A stretch of DNA of 64,000 bases from a virus (IMGVR_UViG_3300023223_001361:1-64000), one strand, 5' to 3'. Shown: positions 54,778 through 63,751, counted from the stretch's first letter. The notes: generated from the letters alone by a model not told the origin. Numbers and translations are program-made.

Positions 54778-54983
54778 GAATCTATGAAATGAAATCTATA
54801 CCTGGCCTTAAAATTGATTTAGAGAAAATTTCTTGTTTTTCTGTTGATGATATTTCTTTTGATATTCGTGTTGATGGAGTAACTTTCCATTCTTATCATG
54901 TAGCAAAAAATCAAGAAGTTTTTGATGCAGATGTATATTTTATTAATAAGTTTTTAGATTCGAGGAAATGTAATGCCTTCTAA
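54774..54983 (+). CDS. Hypothetical protein
   Basis: Overlaps both neighbours in a coupled arrangement. Confidence 0.55.
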   Translation: MRIYEMKSIPGLKIDLEKISCFSVDDISFDIRVDGVTFHSYHVAKNQEVFDADVYFINKFLDSRKCNAF

Positions 54984-55836
54984 ATTAATTATGACAAAAG
55001 GCTTGCCTGGTTCTGGGAAAAGCACTTGGGCAAAACAAATGGTAGAAGAATCTGGGTTCAAAAGGGTGAATAAAGATGACTTACGTGCAATGATTGATGG
55101 TGGAAAATGGTCAAAAGCTAATGAGAAGTTTATATTAAATATCAGAGATAGGATTGTTCAACATGCTTTGCTAGCTAGACATAATATTATTGTAGATGAT
55201 ACCAATCTCCATCCAAAACATGAAGAAAATCTCAGGGCGGAAGCAAAATCTAATGGAGCAGAATTCAAAATAAAAGATTTTACTGATGTTCCATTGCAGA
55301 CTTGTATAGAAAGGGATTTACTTCGACAGGTTTCGGTTGGCAAAGATGTTATCTTAAAAATGCATCGAGAATTTTTGAAAGACAAATCAGGTAGGCGGAC
55401 TCCAGAATATAATCACACTTTACCAAATTGCATTATTGTAGACATTGATGGAACACTTGCTATCAATGATGGTCATCGTCAATTTTATGAATGGGATAAA
55501 GTTGGTCTTGACAAACCGAATAAACCGGTTGTTAACTTAGTTCGATATTGTGATGATTTAACAACACGCATTATTGTTTTTTCTGGTCGAGATGGTTCAT
55601 GTATAGATTTATCTAGAGAATGGTTAATTGCGAACGAAATCCCTTTTGATGCTTTATATCAAAGAGCTTCTGGTGATAGTCGTAAGGACAACATAGTAAA
55701 GCGGGAATTATATGATGCTCATGTGTTGGGAGTATACAACGTTTTATTTGTTTTGGATGATAGGAATCAAGTTGTTGATATGTGGAGGAATGAACTAGGT
55801 TTGACTTGCCTGCAAGTAGCTGAAGGAAATTTCTAA
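54973..55836 (+). CDS. pseT: Polynucleotide 5'-kinase/3'-phosphatase (PseT)
   Basis: GLPGSGKSTWA, NKDDLR, DDTN; HAD domain DIDGTLA, SGR, DDRNQVVDMWR, QVA.GNF. Confidence 0.95.
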   Translation: MPSKLIMTKGLPGSGKSTWAKQMVEESGFKRVNKDDLRAMIDGGKWSKANEKFILNIRDRIVQHALLARHNIIVDDTNLHPKHEENLRAEAKSNGAEFKIKDFTDVPLQTCIERDLLRQVSVGKDVILKMHREFLKDKSGRRTPEYNHTLPNCIIVDIDGTLAINDGHRQFYEWDKVGLDKPNKPVVNLVRYCDDLTTRIIVFSGRDGSCIDLSREWLIANEIPFDALYQRASGDSRKDNIVKRELYDAHVLGVYNVLFVLDDRNQVVDMWRNELGLTCLQVAEGNF

Positions 55837-56522
55837 TGACTAAGTTTGTTTGTATTTCAGATACACATGCTACAGAAAATCGACTGCATTATCCTATTCC
55901 CGATGGAGATGTTTTATTGTTTGCTGGCGATGTTATGACTTGTGGTTATAGGGAATATGAAATTGTTGAATTTCTCAATTGGTTTTCGGCACTTCCCCAT
56001 AAACACAAAATTTGGATTGCTGGAAATCATGATAGGAAATTTGAATATAATCCTGAAAGTGTAAAAGAATTACGAGATGAAAATAGTATACTTTTGGAGA
56101 AACAAGGTTTTATATCTCCAATTTATTTACAAGATGAATCTGTTACTATTGAAGGCTGGAAAATTTATGGTTCCCCTTGGCAGCCTTGGTTTTGTGATTG
56201 GGCGTTCAATCTGCCTCGTGATGGGGAAATATTAGATGAAAAGTGGGCAGTAATTCCTGATGATACAGATATTCTTATTACTCATGGTCCACCTTTTAAA
56301 ATTCTTGATAATTCACCTGGAGTTTGTCATAGTGTTGGTTGTAAACTTCTTATGGAAAGGGTTAAGAGATTAAAGCCTAAAATTCATTTGTTTGGGCATA
56401 TTCATGGTGGTTATGGTGTTCACTTCGATGAAAACATTAATACATACTATGTTAATGCAAGTCTTGTTGACGAAAGATATGAACCGGTAAATGCCCCAAT
56501 TGTAATAGAGCTATATAAATGA
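55836..56522 (+). CDS. Calcineurin-like metallophosphoesterase (MPPED/239FB-like)
   Basis: ISDTH, AGD, IAGNHD, YGSPWQP, LITHGPP, HLFGHIH. Confidence 0.9.
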   Translation: MTKFVCISDTHATENRLHYPIPDGDVLLFAGDVMTCGYREYEIVEFLNWFSALPHKHKIWIAGNHDRKFEYNPESVKELRDENSILLEKQGFISPIYLQDESVTIEGWKIYGSPWQPWFCDWAFNLPRDGEILDEKWAVIPDDTDILITHGPPFKILDNSPGVCHSVGCKLLMERVKRLKPKIHLFGHIHGGYGVHFDENINTYYVNASLVDERYEPVNAPIVIELYK

Positions 56523-57043
56523 TAAATTATTGGAAAATAGAAAAGATAAAGAAAAAACGATTTACTATCGATAAAGATGTAGATCATGAATGTAGTCAAG
56601 AATGCATCGATCTAATTAAGTATTTTGAGGGTTTTAAAAAAGAAGCTTATCCAGATACAGGTGGTGTCTGGACTATTGGTTACGGAACAACTCGTTATAG
56701 TAAATTCAAAAGAGTAAAAAAAGGCGATGTTGTTACAAAAACTCAGGCAGAAGCATATCTCAAAGAAGATGTTGCTAGATTTGTTAAAGCCGTCAATAAA
56801 CGTGTAACTGTTCCTTTAGAGCAACATCAATTTGATGCTTTAGTATGCTGGACTTATAATCTTGGCGAGACAAATTTACGAAAGTCAACTATGCTCAAGG
56901 TTTTGAATAAGGGTTTGTATGACCAAGTTCCAAATCAAATGAGAAGGTGGAATAAGGATAATGGTAAAGTAATAAGAGGATTGGTCAGGAGAAGACATGC
57001 TGAAGCTACATTATTCGAAAGTGGAATTTCTATTAGAGGATAG
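56519..57043 (+). CDS. Lysozyme/endolysin, GH24
   Basis: FEG....AY.D.GG.WTIGYG (E-D-T triad), QFDALV...YNLG, GLVRRR.AE..LF. Confidence 0.93.
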   Translation: MINYWKIEKIKKKRFTIDKDVDHECSQECIDLIKYFEGFKKEAYPDTGGVWTIGYGTTRYSKFKRVKKGDVVTKTQAEAYLKEDVARFVKAVNKRVTVPLEQHQFDALVCWTYNLGETNLRKSTMLKVLNKGLYDQVPNQMRRWNKDNGKVIRGLVRRRHAEATLFESGISIRG

Positions 57044-57046
57044 ATT

Positions 57047-57394
57047 ATGTCAGAAAAGAAAACCGAAAAGAAGAAATATAATATCAAATTGGTTCATACT
57101 CATCTTGGGGAAGATATTGTTGCTGATGTTGAAGAAAAGAAGGATTCTGTGCTTTTAACAAATCCAATTGTTATTGGTATGGTTGGCAGAGCTGGTCCAC
57201 CACAAGTAGCGGCTTCACCTTGGTTGTTATTTTCTACTGAAACTTTTGTAGATCTGGATCGATCTTTCATCATGTATATTAAAGAACCAGTTCAACAACT
57301 TCGTGATGAATGGCAAAGAATTTTCAATCCTAGCCAGATTATTCAACTATCTGGCGATAACAAAGTAGTAGTTCCTGAATTGAAAGTAAAATAG
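57047..57394 (+). CDS. Conserved hypothetical protein (Sm-like) upstream of gp43
   Basis: IKLV....GEDIVA.V......L.NP......PW..F pattern; synteny. Confidence 0.7.
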   Translation: MSEKKTEKKKYNIKLVHTHLGEDIVADVEEKKDSVLLTNPIVIGMVGRAGPPQVAASPWLLFSTETFVDLDRSFIMYIKEPVQQLRDEWQRIFNPSQIIQLSGDNKVVVPELKVK

Positions 57395-57397
57395 TAC

Positions 57398-57426
57398 TTT
57401 ACTAGTTTACAACATTGTGATATAGT
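57398..57426 (+). promoter_or_regulatory. Sigma70-like promoter for the DNA polymerase
   Basis: TTTACT-17 nt-TATAGT with extended TG. Confidence 0.5.
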
Positions 57427-57432
57427 TACATT

Positions 57433-58914
57433 ATGCGTTTTTTTACGAATTGTTTATGTATTCAGAATAAGATATATTTACGTGAAATCGTGGATGGCAA
57501 CCGCAACAAGCGCAAGCTCAATTATCAACCTACTCTATTTTTGCCAGCTAACGAAGAATCCAAGTGGAAAACTCTTGATGGTAAAGATGTCAAACCGATG
57601 CAATTCTCATCTATTAAAGATTCTAGGGAATTCATATCTCAGTATAAAGATGTAGAAAATTTTGAAATATATGGGAATACGAATTATCATTATTGTTTTA
57701 TGGGTGATGAATATCCTGGAAAGATAGAATATAATTTTGATGATTTGATTGTTTGTAATTTAGATATTGAGGTGGCAAGTGAGAATGGTTTTCCTACTGC
57801 CGATCTTGCACAAGAAGAAGTTATAGCAATCACAATGAAAGTAAAAGATTTATTTTTTGTGTTTGGCTGCGGTAATTACAAAAATTATAATCCGAAAGTG
57901 ACTTACTTTCAATGTGAAGATGAAGTTGAATTACTTTCAAGATTTCTTGATATTTGGGAAAAAATTTCTCCAGATATCATTACTGGATGGTATATAGAAG
58001 ATTTTGATATACCATATCTTGTTAATAGAATTACTAAATTGCTTGGTAATCAAGAAGTATCAAGACTTTCTCCTTGGAAATGGGTTAAGGAGAAACGGTA
58101 TTTTTATCAAGGAAAAGAAAAGATTTTGTATAATTTGGTAGGAATTTCTTGTCTGGATTATTTGACACTTTATAAGAATAAAAGTTTGAATCCTAAAGGT
58201 GCAAATAAAGAAAATTATAAGTTGAATACGATTGCTCATCTTGAACTTGGTGAAAAGAAGCTTTCCTATGAGGAATACGGAAATCTGTATAACTTATATA
58301 AGAACAATTATCAGAAGTTTATTGATTACAATATCAAGGATGTTGAGCTTGTTGATAGATTGGAAAATAAATTGAAATTTATTGAGTTAGTTGTGGGGGT
58401 CGCATATGATGCGAAAGTAAATTTTGATGATGTTTTATATCAAGTGAGAACTTGGGATACAATTATATATAATCACTTAAAAGATAGAAATATTGTTATT
58501 CCACAAAAAGAAAGACATGTTAAGAAACAACAATATGCTGGAGGGTATGTCAAAGAACCCCAGTGTGGTATGCATGATTGGGTTATGTCTTTTGATTTGA
58601 ATTCATTGTATCCTCATTTAATTGCTCAATTTAATGTATCACCCGAAACAATTCGCCCGGAAATGTTTAAAGTGGTAAATGTAGAAGGTTTGCTGAAGGG
58701 GAGTTTTGATTTATCAGATTTAAAGAATAAGAAAGTTACAATGGCAGCAAATGGTCACCATTTTGATACTACTAAAGAAGGATTTTTACCAAAGATTTTA
58801 ATGGAAATGTATTCCCTAAGAACTGTTTATAAGAACAAGATGCTTAATGCTGAAAAAAAGTTGGAAAATATCAATACTGAAATGCGCAAAAGAAAATTAG
58901 AAGTAAATGAGTAA
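57433..58914 (+). CDS. 43A: Family-B DNA polymerase gp43, N-terminal part (43A: exonuclease, palm motif A, first finger helix)
   Basis: ExoI DIEV, ExoII TGWY...FDIPY, ExoIII YNIKD, YAGGYVKEP, motif A SFDLNSLYPH; stops after the first fingers helix. Confidence 0.95.
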   Translation: MRFFTNCLCIQNKIYLREIVDGNRNKRKLNYQPTLFLPANEESKWKTLDGKDVKPMQFSSIKDSREFISQYKDVENFEIYGNTNYHYCFMGDEYPGKIEYNFDDLIVCNLDIEVASENGFPTADLAQEEVIAITMKVKDLFFVFGCGNYKNYNPKVTYFQCEDEVELLSRFLDIWEKISPDIITGWYIEDFDIPYLVNRITKLLGNQEVSRLSPWKWVKEKRYFYQGKEKILYNLVGISCLDYLTLYKNKSLNPKGANKENYKLNTIAHLELGEKKLSYEEYGNLYNLYKNNYQKFIDYNIKDVELVDRLENKLKFIELVVGVAYDAKVNFDDVLYQVRTWDTIIYNHLKDRNIVIPQKERHVKKQQYAGGYVKEPQCGMHDWVMSFDLNSLYPHLIAQFNVSPETIRPEMFKVVNVEGLLKGSFDLSDLKNKKVTMAANGHHFDTTKEGFLPKILMEMYSLRTVYKNKMLNAEKKLENINTEMRKRKLEVNE

Positions 58915-59080
58915 TCATATACAAATTTTTAAAAAATATAAGAGTGTTTGCTGTAAAGCGCCAATTCAGAGAGAAAGCTGGCAAATTAGGTGGTTAGCTG
59001 GAACGCATCATATTTGCACCAACTGTAAAAATTTTGTTTCTGATCCTGAGATTTGTTTATCTGATAGGAAAATAAAATGA
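58907..59080 (+). CDS. Small Zn-ribbon-like protein (57 aa, not in the ORF track)
   Basis: MSNHIQIFKKYKSVCCKAPIQRESW...HHICTNCKNF...; overlaps the 43A stop and is ATGA-coupled to the next gene. Confidence 0.6.
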   Translation: MSNHIQIFKKYKSVCCKAPIQRESWQIRWLAGTHHICTNCKNFVSDPEICLSDRKIK

Positions 59081-59910
59081 TCGGCGAAACAAAATATGGG
59101 CCTACTGTTCCGATAACAAAAATTGATGGATATGATAGACTATTTGCTGTTGGTGACGTTCATGGTTGCAAAGCTGAATTAGATATTATTCTAAATCATC
59201 TTGTGGAAAAAGAAAAGCTCACTCAGAATGATCAATTGGTTTTCATTGGTGATTATATTGACCGTGGACCCGATTCACCTGGAGTTATCCAGACCTTAAT
59301 AGAATTCAAGAAAAAGTTTCCAAGGACGGAATTTCTTCGTGGAAATCATGAGGATATGTTGATAGGTTATCTTTATGGCGAAACGGGAATGTCTAGTTGT
59401 AGCCCAAATCGGCGCTTCGGCGGTCTATTTGGTAATATGTTTTTCTATAATGGTGGTAATGAAACTGCAACGCAATATGATCCAGATATTCATTTCAGTG
59501 AAGCAATACCGCACGACCATAAAAAATTTATATTAAATTGCAAACTAATAATTGATACACCAAATGCATATTTTGTTCATGCTGGTTTCGAGAATTTTAA
59601 GAAGGTTCCTCTTGAAGAACAAGTTCTTGGATGTGTTACATGGATGCGTTTCCCATTTCTACATGCTCAGTGTAAATTTGGAAAGACTGTTGTACATGGT
59701 CACACTCCAACAGAAAGGCTACATTGGATTACTACAAAAAATGGTGCAGATCAGGTTAATCTTGATACTGGATGCGTTTATCATGGTAAAAGAGTTAAGA
59801 ATGGAAGGTTGAGCTGTTTGAATGTTAAAGAAAAATATGCTTTCTGTGTTACTAAAGGTGAAACAGAAATTGTTGATGTTAATAGGAAAGAACTTTTTGA
59901 AAAGCAATAA
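59077..59910 (+). CDS. Ser/Thr protein phosphatase-like metallophosphoesterase (lambda-phosphatase/ApaH family)
   Basis: GDVHG, GDYIDRGPDS, RGNHE, FVHAG, HGHTP, LDTG. Confidence 0.92.
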   Translation: MIGETKYGPTVPITKIDGYDRLFAVGDVHGCKAELDIILNHLVEKEKLTQNDQLVFIGDYIDRGPDSPGVIQTLIEFKKKFPRTEFLRGNHEDMLIGYLYGETGMSSCSPNRRFGGLFGNMFFYNGGNETATQYDPDIHFSEAIPHDHKKFILNCKLIIDTPNAYFVHAGFENFKKVPLEEQVLGCVTWMRFPFLHAQCKFGKTVVHGHTPTERLHWITTKNGADQVNLDTGCVYHGKRVKNGRLSCLNVKEKYAFCVTKGETEIVDVNRKELFEKQ

Positions 59911-59985
59911 TCCGGGGTAGCTCAACGGTTGAGCAGACGGCTGTTAACCGTCCGGTTGCAGGTTCGAATCCTGCCCTCGGAGCCA
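59911..59985 (+). tRNA. tRNA-Asn(GTT)
   Basis: Canonical cloverleaf: TCCGGGG/CCTCGGA, GACGG-CTGTTAA-CCGTC, GCAGG-TTCGAAT-CCTGC, G73, CCA. Confidence 0.95.
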
Positions 59986-59994
59986 AAATTTGAA

Positions 59995-60696
59995 ATGAGA
60001 GAAGCAAAAATTTATATGATAGAGCATAAAACTCTCTATAGAAGATATATAGGTTTTACATTAAATTTAAATGCCAGAATTTCTTGTCATAAAAATTGTA
60101 AAGAAAATGGATTACTTCATAGAGATATAAAAAAATATGGTTGGGATGCTTTTGAAACAACAATTTTATACGAATCACCAGATGAATATCACACTTTACT
60201 ATCTATGGAGCCTTATTTTATTGGATTACATCAATCTCATGTAGCCTTTGGTGGCTATAATCAAAGTTTTGGTGGGGAACATGGTCAATTAAAATTAGAG
60301 AGTTATATTATAAGGAAAGGAGGTACGAAAAATAGGGATAGTAAGCTTTATGGTCATAATCAATTTGAAGTTCCAGGAAAGATTTACTTTCCTGAAAGTG
60401 AAAAATTTGAATTAAATCCACCATCTGTTGCTTTACCTAAGCAACCCAGAACAAAAAGATTAGAATGGAATAATCTTTTGGAGTATGTTGAAGATGCTAC
60501 ACGATGTAAAGATAATATTGGTAAATATGCAATTTCTTATAAGGATAAAATAAAAATCCTTGACAAAGAAAAATTAAAAGAGTATTGTAATAAAAATTAT
60601 TTAAATTTTTGGCATATGCTTCAAAAGGCAGAGGGAAAGAAAAATCAACATCTTAAATATCACAGTAAGTGGCATTTTATTAAAAGGATAAGATGA
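59995..60696 (+). mobile_element. Free-standing GIY-YIG (Seg-like) homing endonuclease
   Basis: KIY.I......RRYIG.T.....R...H, LH..IKKYG...F, E.YFI, GYN...GG. True start is ATG 59995, because the longer ORF call overlaps the tRNA. Confidence 0.85.
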
Positions 60697-61793
60697 ATTT
60701 ACAAAACTTAACAAATCAAGAATTAAAAGCTCTACATTCCAAAACATCTGATGAAGTTTTTGAATTTAAGAACTTGCAGGAAGCTAAGAAGGTTCAGCTT
60801 AACTCAGCTTATGGTGCCTTGGGGAACCAATATTTTCGTTTTTATGATATTAGACAAGCTGAAGCTATTACACTTTCTGGTCAACTTGTGATTCAGTGGA
60901 TTGAAAAAACTTTGAATGATTTTCTAAACAAAATGCTTCATACTGAAGATATAGATTATATCATTGCAATGGATACTGATTCAGTTTATGTGAAATTGGA
61001 TAAATTAGTTGATACAGTTTTTAAAGGTAATGTACCAGAACCAAACAAAGTCGTTGACTTTTTAGATAAAGTAGCCGAACAAACTTTTAAGCCATTAATT
61101 GATAAGTCTTATCAGAAACTAGCAGATTATCTTAATGGATACGCACAAAAAATGCAAATGGATCGTGAAGTGATTGCTAGAAAGGGTATTTGGACGGCAA
61201 AGAAACGATATGCTTTACAAGTATATGATTCTGAAGGTATTCGATATAAAAAGCCAAAAATCAAAGACATGGGTTTGGAAACTGTCAAATCTAGTACACC
61301 TGAATTTTGTCGAAAAAAGCTAAAAGAAGCACTAGAAATTTTAATGGTAAAGGATGAAGTTGCAATACAAGAATTTATTGCTAAAGTAAAAGAAGAATTT
61401 GATGCACTTCCACCAGAAGAAATGGCTTTCCCGAGAGGTGTGAATAATCTAGAAAAGTATGCAAATAAAGAATTTATCTATAGTTCAGGAACACCACAAA
61501 ATGTGAAAGCTTCTCTGGTTTATAACCACTTGTTAAAAAAGCATAAATTAACCAGAAAATATCATCTGATCAAGAGCGGGGATAAGATGAAATTTTTACC
61601 TTTAATCTTGCCTAATTCTGCACAAAATGCTATAATAGGATTTTCAGATGAATTACCAAAAGAGTTTAATTTACATGATCAGATTGATTATGATAAGCAA
61701 TTTGAAAAATCTTTTCTCCATCCTTTAGTTGGATTATTAAAACATGTTGGTTGGGAAACCGAGAAAAAATCTTCTTTGTTGGATTTTTTATAA
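60693..61793 (+). CDS. 43B: Family-B DNA polymerase gp43, C-terminal part (43B: second finger helix, palm, thumb)
   Basis: Motif B KVQLNSAYGALGN, AITLSGQ, motif C MDTDSVY, MDRE, KKRYAL, GLETVKSSTP; own ATG with AAGGA RBS. Confidence 0.95.
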   Translation: MNLQNLTNQELKALHSKTSDEVFEFKNLQEAKKVQLNSAYGALGNQYFRFYDIRQAEAITLSGQLVIQWIEKTLNDFLNKMLHTEDIDYIIAMDTDSVYVKLDKLVDTVFKGNVPEPNKVVDFLDKVAEQTFKPLIDKSYQKLADYLNGYAQKMQMDREVIARKGIWTAKKRYALQVYDSEGIRYKKPKIKDMGLETVKSSTPEFCRKKLKEALEILMVKDEVAIQEFIAKVKEEFDALPPEEMAFPRGVNNLEKYANKEFIYSSGTPQNVKASLVYNHLLKKHKLTRKYHLIKSGDKMKFLPLILPNSAQNAIIGFSDELPKEFNLHDQIDYDKQFEKSFLHPLVGLLKHVGWETEKKSSLLDFL

Positions 61794-62545
61794 TGATAGA
61801 ATTATTTCTTGGTGACTGTTTAGAAATTATGAGAAATATAGATGATAATTCTATAGATATGATTCTATGTGATTTACCTTATGGTACAACAAGATGTAAA
61901 TGGGATATTCCTATTCCTTTTAAATTTCTATGGAAAGAATATGAAAGAATTACAAAAGAAACAGCTAATATTATACTAACTTCAGCTCAACCATTTACAA
62001 GTAAATTGATTTTAAGTAATCTTAATTTATTCAAATATGAATTAATTTGGAATAAACGAAAAGTTACTGGTTTCTTAAATGCTAAAAAGCGCCCTTTAGT
62101 TCAACATGAAAATATTTTAGTATTTTATAAAAAATTTGGAACTTATAATCCAATAATGCATGATAATAAACTAAAAAGAGAATTTAAAGAAGTGAAAAAA
62201 ATCGATAAGACAAAAGTTTATGGAAAACAAAAATCTCATATAAAAAATATCGAAGATAATATTTCTTATCCAAGAAGTATAATTGAAAAAGTGGGTGTTC
62301 TTGGAAATAGTGATGAAAAGGTTAATCATCCAACACAGAAACCAATCGGTTTATTTGAATATTTAATTAAAACTTATAGTAATCCTAATGATTTGGTTCT
62401 AGATAATTGTATGGGTTCAGGTACAACTGGCGTTGCTTGTAAAAGAAATAATCGCAATTTTATTGGTATAGAATTGGATAAAGGATATTTTGACATAGCT
62501 AAAGATAGGATTGATGGTGAAAATAATTTGTTGGAATTTTTATAA
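61793..62545 (+). CDS. Orphan DNA amino-methyltransferase (beta class, DLPY)
   Basis: GDCL, DLPYG, HPTQKP, VLDNCMGSGTT, FIGIE. Confidence 0.9.
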   Translation: MIELFLGDCLEIMRNIDDNSIDMILCDLPYGTTRCKWDIPIPFKFLWKEYERITKETANIILTSAQPFTSKLILSNLNLFKYELIWNKRKVTGFLNAKKRPLVQHENILVFYKKFGTYNPIMHDNKLKREFKEVKKIDKTKVYGKQKSHIKNIEDNISYPRSIIEKVGVLGNSDEKVNHPTQKPIGLFEYLIKTYSNPNDLVLDNCMGSGTTGVACKRNNRNFIGIELDKGYFDIAKDRIDGENNLLEFL

Positions 62546-62970
62546 TGGGAAACTATACTTATATGGAGCTTTGGGATATGCCTAATGTAGAAATGAGTAA
62601 ATTAGTAGGTAAGGTTTTCACTTCTATAGATGTAGGAGATGATAGTATTACATTTAAAGCAAATGATGGTTCTGAGTATGTCATGTGGCACAATCAGGAT
62701 TGTTGCGAAAATGTTTATGTTGAAAGCGTTGTTGGTGATATAATAGATTTAATAGGAAATCCTATTTTACTTGCAGAAGTAGTGAGCCAAAATGAGACAC
62801 CAAAAGGAATTTCAGATGAGGAATTATCTACTGGAGAAAGTTTTACTTGGACTTTTTACAAATTAGCAACGATTAAGGGTCATGTTGATATTCGATGGTT
62901 TGGCTCATCTAATGGTTATTATTCTGAAAGGGTTAATTTAGTCGAAACGAAAGATGCTAAAGTTGAATAA
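62545..62970 (+). CDS. Conserved phage hypothetical protein
   Basis: H.QDCCE.V, TWTFYK..T.KG.V..RW.GSSNGYYSE motif widespread in phages. Confidence 0.75.
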   Translation: MGNYTYMELWDMPNVEMSKLVGKVFTSIDVGDDSITFKANDGSEYVMWHNQDCCENVYVESVVGDIIDLIGNPILLAEVVSQNETPKGISDEELSTGESFTWTFYKLATIKGHVDIRWFGSSNGYYSERVNLVETKDAKVE

Positions 62971-63751
62971 AATATATCATGGCAATTGTCTTGAGTTGAT
63001 GAATGAACTGGATGATGGTTGTATTGATTTAACTGTAACTTCTCCACCTTATGATAACTTAAGAGATTATAACGGATATGAATTTCGATTTGATGAAATC
63101 GCAACTGAGTTGTTTCGGATTACCAAACCTGGAGGTATTGTTGTTTGGGTTGTGGGTGATGCTGTTATAAAAGGAAGTGAAACTGGCACTTCATTTCAGC
63201 AAGCATTATATTTTAAAGATATTGGTTTTCGGTTACATGATACAATGATTTGGCAGAAAAGTAATTTTTCAAATCCTAGTAAAAATAGATATCATCAAAT
63301 TTTCGAATATATGTTTGTGTTTTCAAAAGGTAAACTAAAAACATTTAATCCTATTAAAGACAAGAAGAATAAGTATGTTGGTCAAGCTACAGTGGGAAAG
63401 AATACTAGAAGATTAGCTAATGGAGAAATGGTTGAGTCAAAAAAGAATATTATTAATGAATATGGTATGAGAACAAATATTTGGTTCATGAATACAGTAG
63501 GTCAGGAATACATGTGTAAAAAGTTGCCGCATCCAGCTATGTTTCCCGAAAAACTTGTAAAGGATCATATTATCTCGTGGTCAAATAAAGGTGATTTAGT
63601 TTTGGATCCCTTTATTGGGAGTGGGACAACTGCTAAAGTAGCTATGTTGAATAATCGAAACTATATTGGGATGGATATTTCAAAAGAATATTGCGAAATG
63701 GCAAGAGCAAGAATTGATGAGAGTCAAGGATTGCTATCAGTCATGAAATAG
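62954..63751 (+). CDS. Orphan DNA amino-methyltransferase (beta class, SPPY; likely N4-cytosine)
   Basis: TVTSPPYD, HPAMFPE, VLDPFIGSGTT, YIGMDIS. Confidence 0.9.
   Translation: MLKLNKIYHGNCLELMNELDDGCIDLTVTSPPYDNLRDYNGYEFRFDEIATELFRITKPGGIVVWVVGDAVIKGSETGTSFQQALYFKDIGFRLHDTMIWQKSNFSNPSKNRYHQIFEYMFVFSKGKLKTFNPIKDKKNKYVGQATVGKNTRRLANGEMVESKKNIINEYGMRTNIWFMNTVGQEYMCKKLPHPAMFPEKLVKDHIISWSNKGDLVLDPFIGSGTTAKVAMLNNRNYIGMDISKEYCEMARARIDESQGLLSVMK

Follow-up and report, generated by a model that had tools for sequence, protein, structure and literature searches.

The stretch of viral DNA analysed here (IMGVR_UViG_3300023223_001361:1-64000, hereafter the window, 64,000 nt) covers the first 64 kb of a phage genome that is complete at 160,399 bp, has direct terminal repeats and contains 33.9% G+C. 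At positions 57433-61793 it carries the gene for a T4-type family-B DNA polymerase (gene 43), which is divided within the fingers domain into two open reading frames (ORFs), 43A and 43B, with a gap of 1,778 nt between them that is filled by other genes. All six features of the locus lie on the + strand with almost no spacing:

57433..58914, + strand: gene 43A, 493 aa, encoding the N-terminal domain, 3'-5' exonuclease, palm motif A and first finger helix of the T4-type family-B DNA polymerase
58907..59080, + strand: Cys-rich ORF, 57 aa, an orphan of putative coding status
59077..59910, + strand: PPP-family (lambda-phosphatase / NinI-like) metallophosphatase gene, 277 aa
59911..59985, + strand: tRNA-Asn (anticodon GTT) with an encoded CCA end, found by ARAGORN and by Rfam at 65.9 bits
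59995..60696, + strand: free-standing GIY-YIG homing endonuclease gene, 233 aa from ATG 59995
60693..61793, + strand: gene 43B, 366 aa, encoding the second finger helix with motif B, palm motif C, thumb and C-terminal tail

An earlier sequence-only reading had placed the split in the fingers, with the two halves at these coordinates and a gap of 1.78 kb, and every element that it listed (the 57-aa Cys-rich ORF, the phosphatase, tRNA-Asn and a GIY-YIG endonuclease coupled to the 43B start) is present. The heptad-like tail that it ascribed to 43A, and the ribosome-binding site and helical leader before motif B that it ascribed to 43B, are likewise seen. The 43A tail reads ...KMLNAEKKLENINTEMRKRKLEVNE*, with the stop codon at 58912-58914, and 43B begins with MNLQNLTNQELKALH. 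The ATG of the Cys-rich ORF lies within the last codons of 43A, giving an 8-nt overlap with the 43A stop, and the phosphatase start overlaps the stop of the Cys-rich ORF as ATGA. The tRNA begins on the base next to the phosphatase stop. A second ATGA joins the endonuclease stop to the start of 43B, where an AAGGA Shine-Dalgarno sequence stands just upstream of ATG 60693. An alternative start for the GIY-YIG ORF, TTG 59929, falls within the tRNA, and ATG 59995 is most likely the start codon used. Scans of 56900-62000 for promoters and terminators returned sites at chance level only, and the region lacks the T4 late-promoter motif TATAAATA.

The two halves together account for one polymerase. 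Pfam assigns DNA_pol_B_exo1 and DNA_pol_B to 43A and DNA_pol_B to 43B. On the full-length profile phrog_262 (856 positions), 43A covers 7-503 and 43B covers 493-850. Each also matches a PHROG family consisting of halves, phrog_2062 (N-terminal halves) for 43A and phrog_1918 (C-terminal halves) for 43B, indicating that the split recurs in known phages. Comparison with solved structures aligns 43A residue 492 to residue 511 of RB69 gp43, while 43B residue 5 aligns to residue 529 of T4 gp43 and the whole of 43B spans T4 gp43 529-896. Thus, the break lies at the fingertip, with the helix after motif A on one side and the motif B helix on the other, and a fingertip alignment places it in the same loop as in the Aeromonas phage Aes012 and the Acinetobacter phage Abraxas. 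Across 23 relatives the catalytic motifs, which the sequence-only reading had judged intact, occupy invariant columns: Exo I-III and motif A in 43A, and motif B, DTDS and KKRY in 43B. The same fingertip alignment reveals that the 43A tail and the 43B leader are native sequence, contiguous in an unsplit relative (L003). The idea that the tail and leader are an added zipper was ruled out on this ground.

We co-folded 43A with 43B using 23-row alignments. The pair scored 0.83, against 0.01 for the best of 3 controls, on a scale where the pass mark is reached by 58 of 80 solved complexes and by 2 of 110 mismatched pairs. At least 90% of the contacts agree among three runs, and the partner predicted local distance difference test (pLDDT) value is at least 87. 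The predicted interface joins 43A 368-404 to 43B 90-103 and 146-171 in the palm sheet, and the model has the reconstituted palm as the main contact surface of the two halves. A periodic ladder that links 43A 452-492 with 43B 3-42 corresponds to the tail and leader paired as an antiparallel helical hairpin. The proposal that the halves reassemble through a coiled coil is supported in part: the paired helices are present in the model, but they are native fingertip and the main modelled contact is the palm. Since the structures of RB69 and T4 gp43 are already solved, the co-fold pass may show likeness to them rather than binding. We infer that 43A and 43B are translated separately and would reassemble into one active heterodimeric enzyme, mainly by rebuilding of the palm sheet, to which 43A would bring motif A and 43B motif C, while the finger helices would pair as the antiparallel hairpin.

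Could the two coding sequences be joined before the enzyme is made? Removal of the gap in the RNA or the protein, through a group I or II intron that escaped recognition, a split intein or translational bypass, would yield a single full-length polymerase, and there are precedents. Some essential genes of phage ICP1, seemingly fragmented with an endonuclease between the pieces, are actually spliced (PMC10448857), the 43B gene of phage 25 has a group I intron (PMC2993671), gene 43 is intron-interrupted in phage JSE as well, and covariance models can miss introns with large inserts. However, Rfam searches across 56500-62600 at E<=1 returned the tRNA only, with no match to Intron_gpI or any other ribozyme, and an intron search in five split relatives at E<=0.1 returned none. 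Pfam gives no intein or Hint domain match in either half, which together with the Rfam result agrees with the sequence-only reading, where no intein or intron signature had been noted. The ends of 43A and 43B match the unsplit L003 fingertip residue for residue with nothing left over, 43A has its own stop, and 43B has its own ATG and Shine-Dalgarno sequence at a position conserved in relatives. The gap is occupied by a tRNA and three ORFs in differing frames. Moreover, phage 25, with the same kind of split, yields two co-purifying proteins (PMC2988022). A split-intein model was rejected, given the missing intein/Hint match and the direct alignment of the ends to the contiguous L003 fingertip, as was a group I intron model, given that intron RNA was matched neither at 56500-62600 nor in the five split relatives. 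We regard removal of the gap in any form as highly improbable.

A pseudogenised polymerase or a chimeric assembly is less credible still. The record is a metagenome-derived genome, and a related contig (L137) has a frameshift in the first finger helix at a poly-A run. Yet the assembly is a complete genome bearing terminal repeats, every catalytic motif is intact and invariant, independent assemblies from different samples show the break again, also with clean stop and start codons, and PHROGs keeps a distinct family for each half. Misassembly of the split locus is very unlikely because the genome is complete and the relatives' independent assemblies show the same break, and we give a defect or artefact of either kind almost no weight.

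The closest relatives of the locus, L179 and L180, were found by the phosphatase search rather than the polymerase search. L180 is part of a 55-kb contig, with a 43A 78.7% and a 43B 72.7% identical to those of the window, and is syntenic throughout (Pnk-like gene, Metallophos gene, lysozyme, small ORF, 43A, gap, 43B, methyltransferase). In L179 the identities are 79% for 43A and 75.7% for 43B. Both are split at the same residue position as the window, both have an orthologue of the phosphatase within the gap (71% identical in L179, 56% in L180) and both carry tRNA-Asn(GTT) at the equivalent place. When these tRNAs are aligned, together with a copy from L181, 12 of the 21 stem pairs retain pairing through two-sided changes, and such compensatory changes indicate that they are maintained as tRNAs.

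The slots around this phosphatase and tRNA differ from phage to phage. Between 43A and the phosphatase stands the Cys-rich ORF in the window, nothing in L179 and an unrelated 123-aa ORF in L180. The slot between phosphatase and tRNA is filled in L179 only, by an HNH_3 endonuclease. Between the tRNA and 43B the window has the GIY-YIG gene, which is absent from this slot in both relatives; L179 has instead a 195-aa BglII-like ORF (Pfam E 0.018, atlas 0.95) and L180 a 525-aa ORF resembling viral GmrSD_N and HNH proteins (atlas 0.97, no profile match). In all three phages the stop of the ORF in this last slot overlaps the start codon of 43B. Since both relatives have the split, phosphatase and tRNA-Asn but other ORFs where the window has its GIY-YIG gene, the split probably predates this endonuclease, which would be one recent occupant and not the maker of the split. 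L179 also has a further endonuclease-like gene directly after 43B (L179:3605-4273; phrog_681, E 1.5e-26; faint DUF723/T5orf172), so that 43B is bracketed by nuclease genes in that phage.

The endonuclease of the window carries its GIY-YIG catalytic domain at the N-terminus, where Pfam PF01541 scores 32 bits (cut-off 22.6) and the IY..YIG, Arg, Glu and Asn positions can be recognised. It matches phrog_7168 and phrog_314 (homing endonuclease), and an NCBIfam subfamily of group I intron endonucleases below the cut-off of that family. It is the only solid GIY-YIG gene in the whole genome and is free-standing, as a separate ORF between the tRNA and 43B that is accompanied by no intron RNA. Residues ~105-233 have no Pfam match, and few relatives align over the full length, one of them with NUMOD3. 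An exhaustive HMMER search gave 1,884 distant relatives; alignment of nearly all is confined to the catalytic domain of ~100 residues, and no match is better than 1e-18. The best-scoring relative among 1.84 billion proteins, P0002, is encoded in a gene-43 gap of another phage lineage, where two contigs show the order 43A, 216-aa ORF, GIY-YIG, dCMP deaminase, 43B, uvsX. Another full-length relative, P0009, is the GIY-YIG enzyme of L095 and likewise lies in a gene-43 gap, and a further relative, P0020, adjoins uvsY in a T4-like phage. These positions of P0002 and P0009 point to a lineage of endonucleases associated with gene-43 gaps. The related enzyme is present in L095 and absent from L002, and is thus sporadic at a fixed locus. 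A word-indexed protein search with the endonuclease found no relative, and direct searches of IMG/VR for close relatives of the endonuclease or the phosphatase gave weak partial matches only, with no tRNA or polymerase nearby. It is plausible, by these relationships, that the endonuclease is a gene-43-homing enzyme.

We surveyed other fingertip splits. A megablast of the region against 50,697 phage records gave no match, and the best polymerase relatives in these records are cyanophages at 45% identity. Searches with the polymerase halves identified ~160 loci at 43-54% identity, ~145 of them with both halves, and roughly 12 of those are split. In a metagenome scan with 43B the closest match has 54% identity and the loci are almost all unsplit. 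The inserts vary. L015 has an HNH-NUMOD3 endonuclease and L001 a zinc-finger/helix-turn-helix ORF in which an HNH-like motif was seen by eye only. The gap in L004-L011 encodes a 2-oxoglutarate (2OG)-Fe(II) oxygenase (L004:2899-3456, L009:8410-8949) and no endonuclease, and that in L002 an ORF of no assigned kind and a dCMP deaminase (L002:9053-9565), again with no endonuclease. L095 has the same two genes as L002 (dCMP deaminase L095:4908-5369) and the GIY-YIG gene in addition. Other aquatic lineages of T4-like phages thus have metabolic genes without a nuclease domain, the 2OG-Fe(II) oxygenase and the dCMP deaminase, in the fingertip gap. In L137 (430-600), what looked like a 44-nt split proved to be the poly-A frameshift, within the first finger helix, which shows why splits with short gaps should be checked when they come from metagenome contigs.

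A quick maximum-likelihood tree of 68 polymerases, from which loci with incomplete halves, Abraxas, L095, L179 and L180 were left out, groups the window with L001, L002 and L003 (Shimodaira-Hasegawa-like approximate likelihood ratio test, SH-aLRT, 97). L015 is nested among unsplit polymerases, and L003 is unsplit yet sister to the split L002. On this tree the split state changes at least three times, on well-supported branches. Judged from these sequences, the fingertip split is rare across the ~145 loci and has at least three independent origins among those sampled, with varied inserts. Comparison of L002:6428-12868 with L003:2143-7437, alleles of near-identical phages, reveals 100% identity far upstream, which falls to ~85% across the last 600-800 nt of 43A and keeps that level over more than 3 kb downstream. 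This drop marks a recombination boundary flanking the insertion site, a pattern that has been reported for nuclease-flanked exchange in phages (PMC10448857).

The sequence-only reading had taken the whole 1.78-kb cassette for one composite mobile element that split an intact gene 43 on homing into it and whose cargo serves counter-defence. The four genes of the gap are co-oriented and tightly coupled, anything between the polymerase arms would be co-converted in homing (as PMC2988022 would imply), and relatives of the endonuclease are located in gene-43 gaps. An endonuclease may create such a split, as L015 has an HNH gene alone in an otherwise unsplit clade. The phage also carries all four tRNAs with GUN anticodons, a Pnk-like gene and an Rnl2-family ligase. 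Against this, the GIY-YIG gene is missing from L179 and L180, which are split and carry the phosphatase and tRNA-Asn, P0002 and P0009 accompany a dCMP deaminase and not a phosphatase or tRNA, and the parts are combined at no locus outside this lineage. The phosphatase, in addition, is under the cut-off of every specific family and has a full-length match to lambda phosphatase only. We therefore consider a single composite element improbable. Comparison of the cassettes bears this out: the split, phosphatase and tRNA-Asn are present in L179 and L180, with other ORFs at the place of the GIY-YIG gene. Of the idea that a mobile element homes into this essential gene, the part concerning the endonuclease is plausible, since P0002 and P0009 occupy gene-43 gaps, but the cassette is not one unit, and the claim that it made the split falls with the two relatives that lack the GIY-YIG gene.

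The phosphatase matches Pfam Metallophos and phrog_246 (NinI-like Ser/Thr phosphatase, 1.6e-44). Among solved structures its sole full-length match is lambda phosphatase, 1G5B, aligned over residues 15-238. The motifs GDxHG, GDxxDRG, GNHE and HGH are invariant in the alignment made (A4), the protein lies under the NCBIfam cut-offs for Pnkp, ApaH, PrpE and PrpA/B, and its homologues at ~40% identity are ordinary bacterial chromosomal genes. By sequence it is a generic lambda-phosphatase-type enzyme. For the Cys-rich ORF we found no match in Pfam, PHROG or NCBIfam and no relative among 5.8 billion proteins in the word-indexed search.

Close phage homologues of the phosphatase often adjoin tRNA genes or arrays (L181:1674-2957, L187/L188:6001-6861, L239:647-1912). 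Counted over independent contexts, the gene stands beside tRNA genes in 4 of 6 for close phage homologues against 4 of 76 for distant ones (one-sided Fisher p = 5.5e-4, on small numbers), a hint that this subfamily of phosphatases is linked to tRNA clusters by function or by mobility. Exact matches to the core of tRNA-Asn turned up in three unrelated contigs, with the tRNA in ordinary arrays and no sign of its moving with the cassette. The genome encodes all four tRNAs of the GUN-anticodon (queuosine) family, Asn, Asp, His and Tyr; tRNA-Asn (59911-59985) lies within the gene-43 gap and the other three at 135502, 136289 and 138340, beyond the window. In the codon usage of the phage AAT makes up 4.9% and AAC 0.9%, and NAT codons greatly outnumber NAC. 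The dominance of NAT codons gives a plain translational reason for carrying GUN tRNAs, tRNA-Asn included. The upstream Pnk-like gene and the Rnl2-family ligase are standard T4-type equipment, and a role of the cargo in tRNA repair or counter-defence is hypothetical.

A more specific proposal is that the phosphatase and tRNA-Asn form a functional unit fixed in the polymerase gene, supplying or protecting GUN tRNAs (for example against a colicin-E5-type anticodon nuclease). If so, its place between the halves of an essential gene would guard the unit against deletion, whichever nuclease fills the adjacent slot could spread it between phages, and the ratio of 43A to 43B expression would be set by tRNA excision, which would sever the message between them. 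We think that the chance of this being correct is small.

The sequence-only reading had also regarded the locus as the best candidate for an undescribed system in the window. This does not hold: seg43(25) of phage 25 and the multi-gene gaps of the phage 133 type are published (PMC2988022, PMC3061061, PMC2677866), and the locus is a further example of the published fingertip-split kind of gp43, in a new phage lineage. The nearest precedent is Aeromonas salmonicida phage 25 (Petrov, Ratnayaka & Karam 2010, via PMC2988022 and PMC2993671), in which a T4-type family-B polymerase is split at the fingertip with a free-standing GIY-YIG gene directly upstream of 43B. This seg-type gene, seg43(25), lies between 43A and 43B (PMC2988022), the two proteins co-purify and are active (PMC2988022), and the case is listed among endonuclease-fractured genes without inteins (PMC2677866). 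It differs in the group I intron of its 43B (PMC2993671), thought to be mobilised by the endonuclease, no intron having been found at the locus described here, and in its gap, for which neither phosphatase nor tRNA is reported, whereas that of the window has both. The polymerases are also distant: that of Aes012, of the same group, is ~30% identical to that of the window, and the annotated record of Aes012 shows a 43A-43B gap of 53 bp. Phage 44RR is split without an endonuclease, so that the endonuclease may have entered an already split gene (PMC2988022).

Fingertip splits are described for phages 133, 44RR, 31, 25 and 65, with gaps of 2 bp to 3 kb (PMC3061061). The Acinetobacter phage 133 type (Lazarusvirus, e.g. 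Abraxas) resembles the window in its multi-gene gap at the same fingertip loop. The annotated record of Abraxas shows a 3-kb gap with five small ORFs and a MobE homing endonuclease adjoining 43B, but that endonuclease is of the HNH type and encoded on the other strand, every cargo ORF is hypothetical and a tRNA is absent. In Aeromonas phage Aeh1 (Friedrich/Gibb/Edgell, cited in PMC2988022 and PMC2677866) a free-standing endonuclease, mobE, likewise splits an essential gene, nrdA, without splicing, and the halves reassemble into an active enzyme; the gene there is a ribonucleotide reductase, the endonuclease is of another family and a single gene is inserted. Dassa et al. (2009, PMC2677866) describe fractured genes that have split inteins and Vsr-like endonucleases. 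These are marine phage replication genes in two ORFs with a free-standing endonuclease between, for which endonuclease-free alleles exist, but their pieces are ligated by split-intein halves, whereas the split gene 43 here has no intein and its ends are native fingertip. Finally, an engineered Pfu polymerase, a family-B enzyme cut near the fingertip with an overlapping stop and start (AUGA), is fully active (Hansen et al. 2011, PMC3061061), although this split is artificial, archaeal and without intervening genes.

Taken together, we consider it likely that gene 43 of this phage encodes a naturally bicistronic T4-type polymerase with an old split, whose gap is a stable place for extra genes, with a phosphatase-tRNA core, turnover of nuclease-like genes in the adjoining slot, and the GIY-YIG gene as a later invader. 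In this history, the break in gene 43, at the variable loop that joins the two long finger helices, would have arisen early in the phage lineage, and the gap would have become a stable home for extra genes. Its conserved core, a lambda-phosphatase-like enzyme and tRNA-Asn, would be flanked by variable slots, with unrelated nuclease-like genes replacing one another in the slot before 43B. The GIY-YIG gene most likely invaded the already split gene. It probably spreads when its presumed activity cuts endonuclease-free gene 43 alleles of co-infecting relatives and repair copies the gene in, and genes lying between the conserved polymerase arms would be copied with it.

Several points weigh against this history. 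The nuclease-like assignments for the slots of L179 and L180 rest on language-model leads and one weak Pfam match (E 0.018), not on significant profiles. The order in which the split comes first rests on two relatives; a GIY-YIG gene that was ancestral and replaced in L179 and L180 would give the opposite history. The count of split states comes from a quick tree search and not from a careful finished one. The promoter-like sites in the 56900-62000 scan, at chance level, give no independent promoter for 43B, and processing of a tRNA in the middle of the transcript could unbalance the expression of 43A and 43B.

The surroundings of the locus are partly conserved. A block upstream of 43A (window 54973-57394) comprises a Pnk-like kinase/HAD phosphatase gene, a second Metallophos gene, a lysozyme gene and a small ORF; L180 holds the full block, and L095 holds the Metallophos gene, lysozyme and small ORF. 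The whole genome has four Metallophos genes. Downstream of 43B are two N6/N4 DNA methyltransferase genes (window 61751-62545 and 62954-63751), the first of which, as listed with a TTG start at 61751, overlaps the end of 43B by 43 nt, and its true start may be later.

Polymerase biology gains little from this locus, since tolerance of a fingertip break and resident homing endonucleases were already known for family-B polymerases. Its value is comparative: the fingertip split, known from a few cultured phages of Aeromonas and Acinetobacter, is now also seen in uncultured aquatic phages of the T4-like type, and there is useful added evidence that a phosphatase-tRNA core is conserved while the nuclease-like genes next to it turn over. 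The loci form a small natural series, from unsplit (L003) through split without an endonuclease (L002, L004-L011) to split with endonucleases of several families (the window, L015, L095, L179, L180). This series is useful for following the turnover of selfish nucleases at one site and the lodging of ordinary genes, such as a phosphatase, a tRNA, a dCMP deaminase and a 2OG oxygenase, inside an essential gene.

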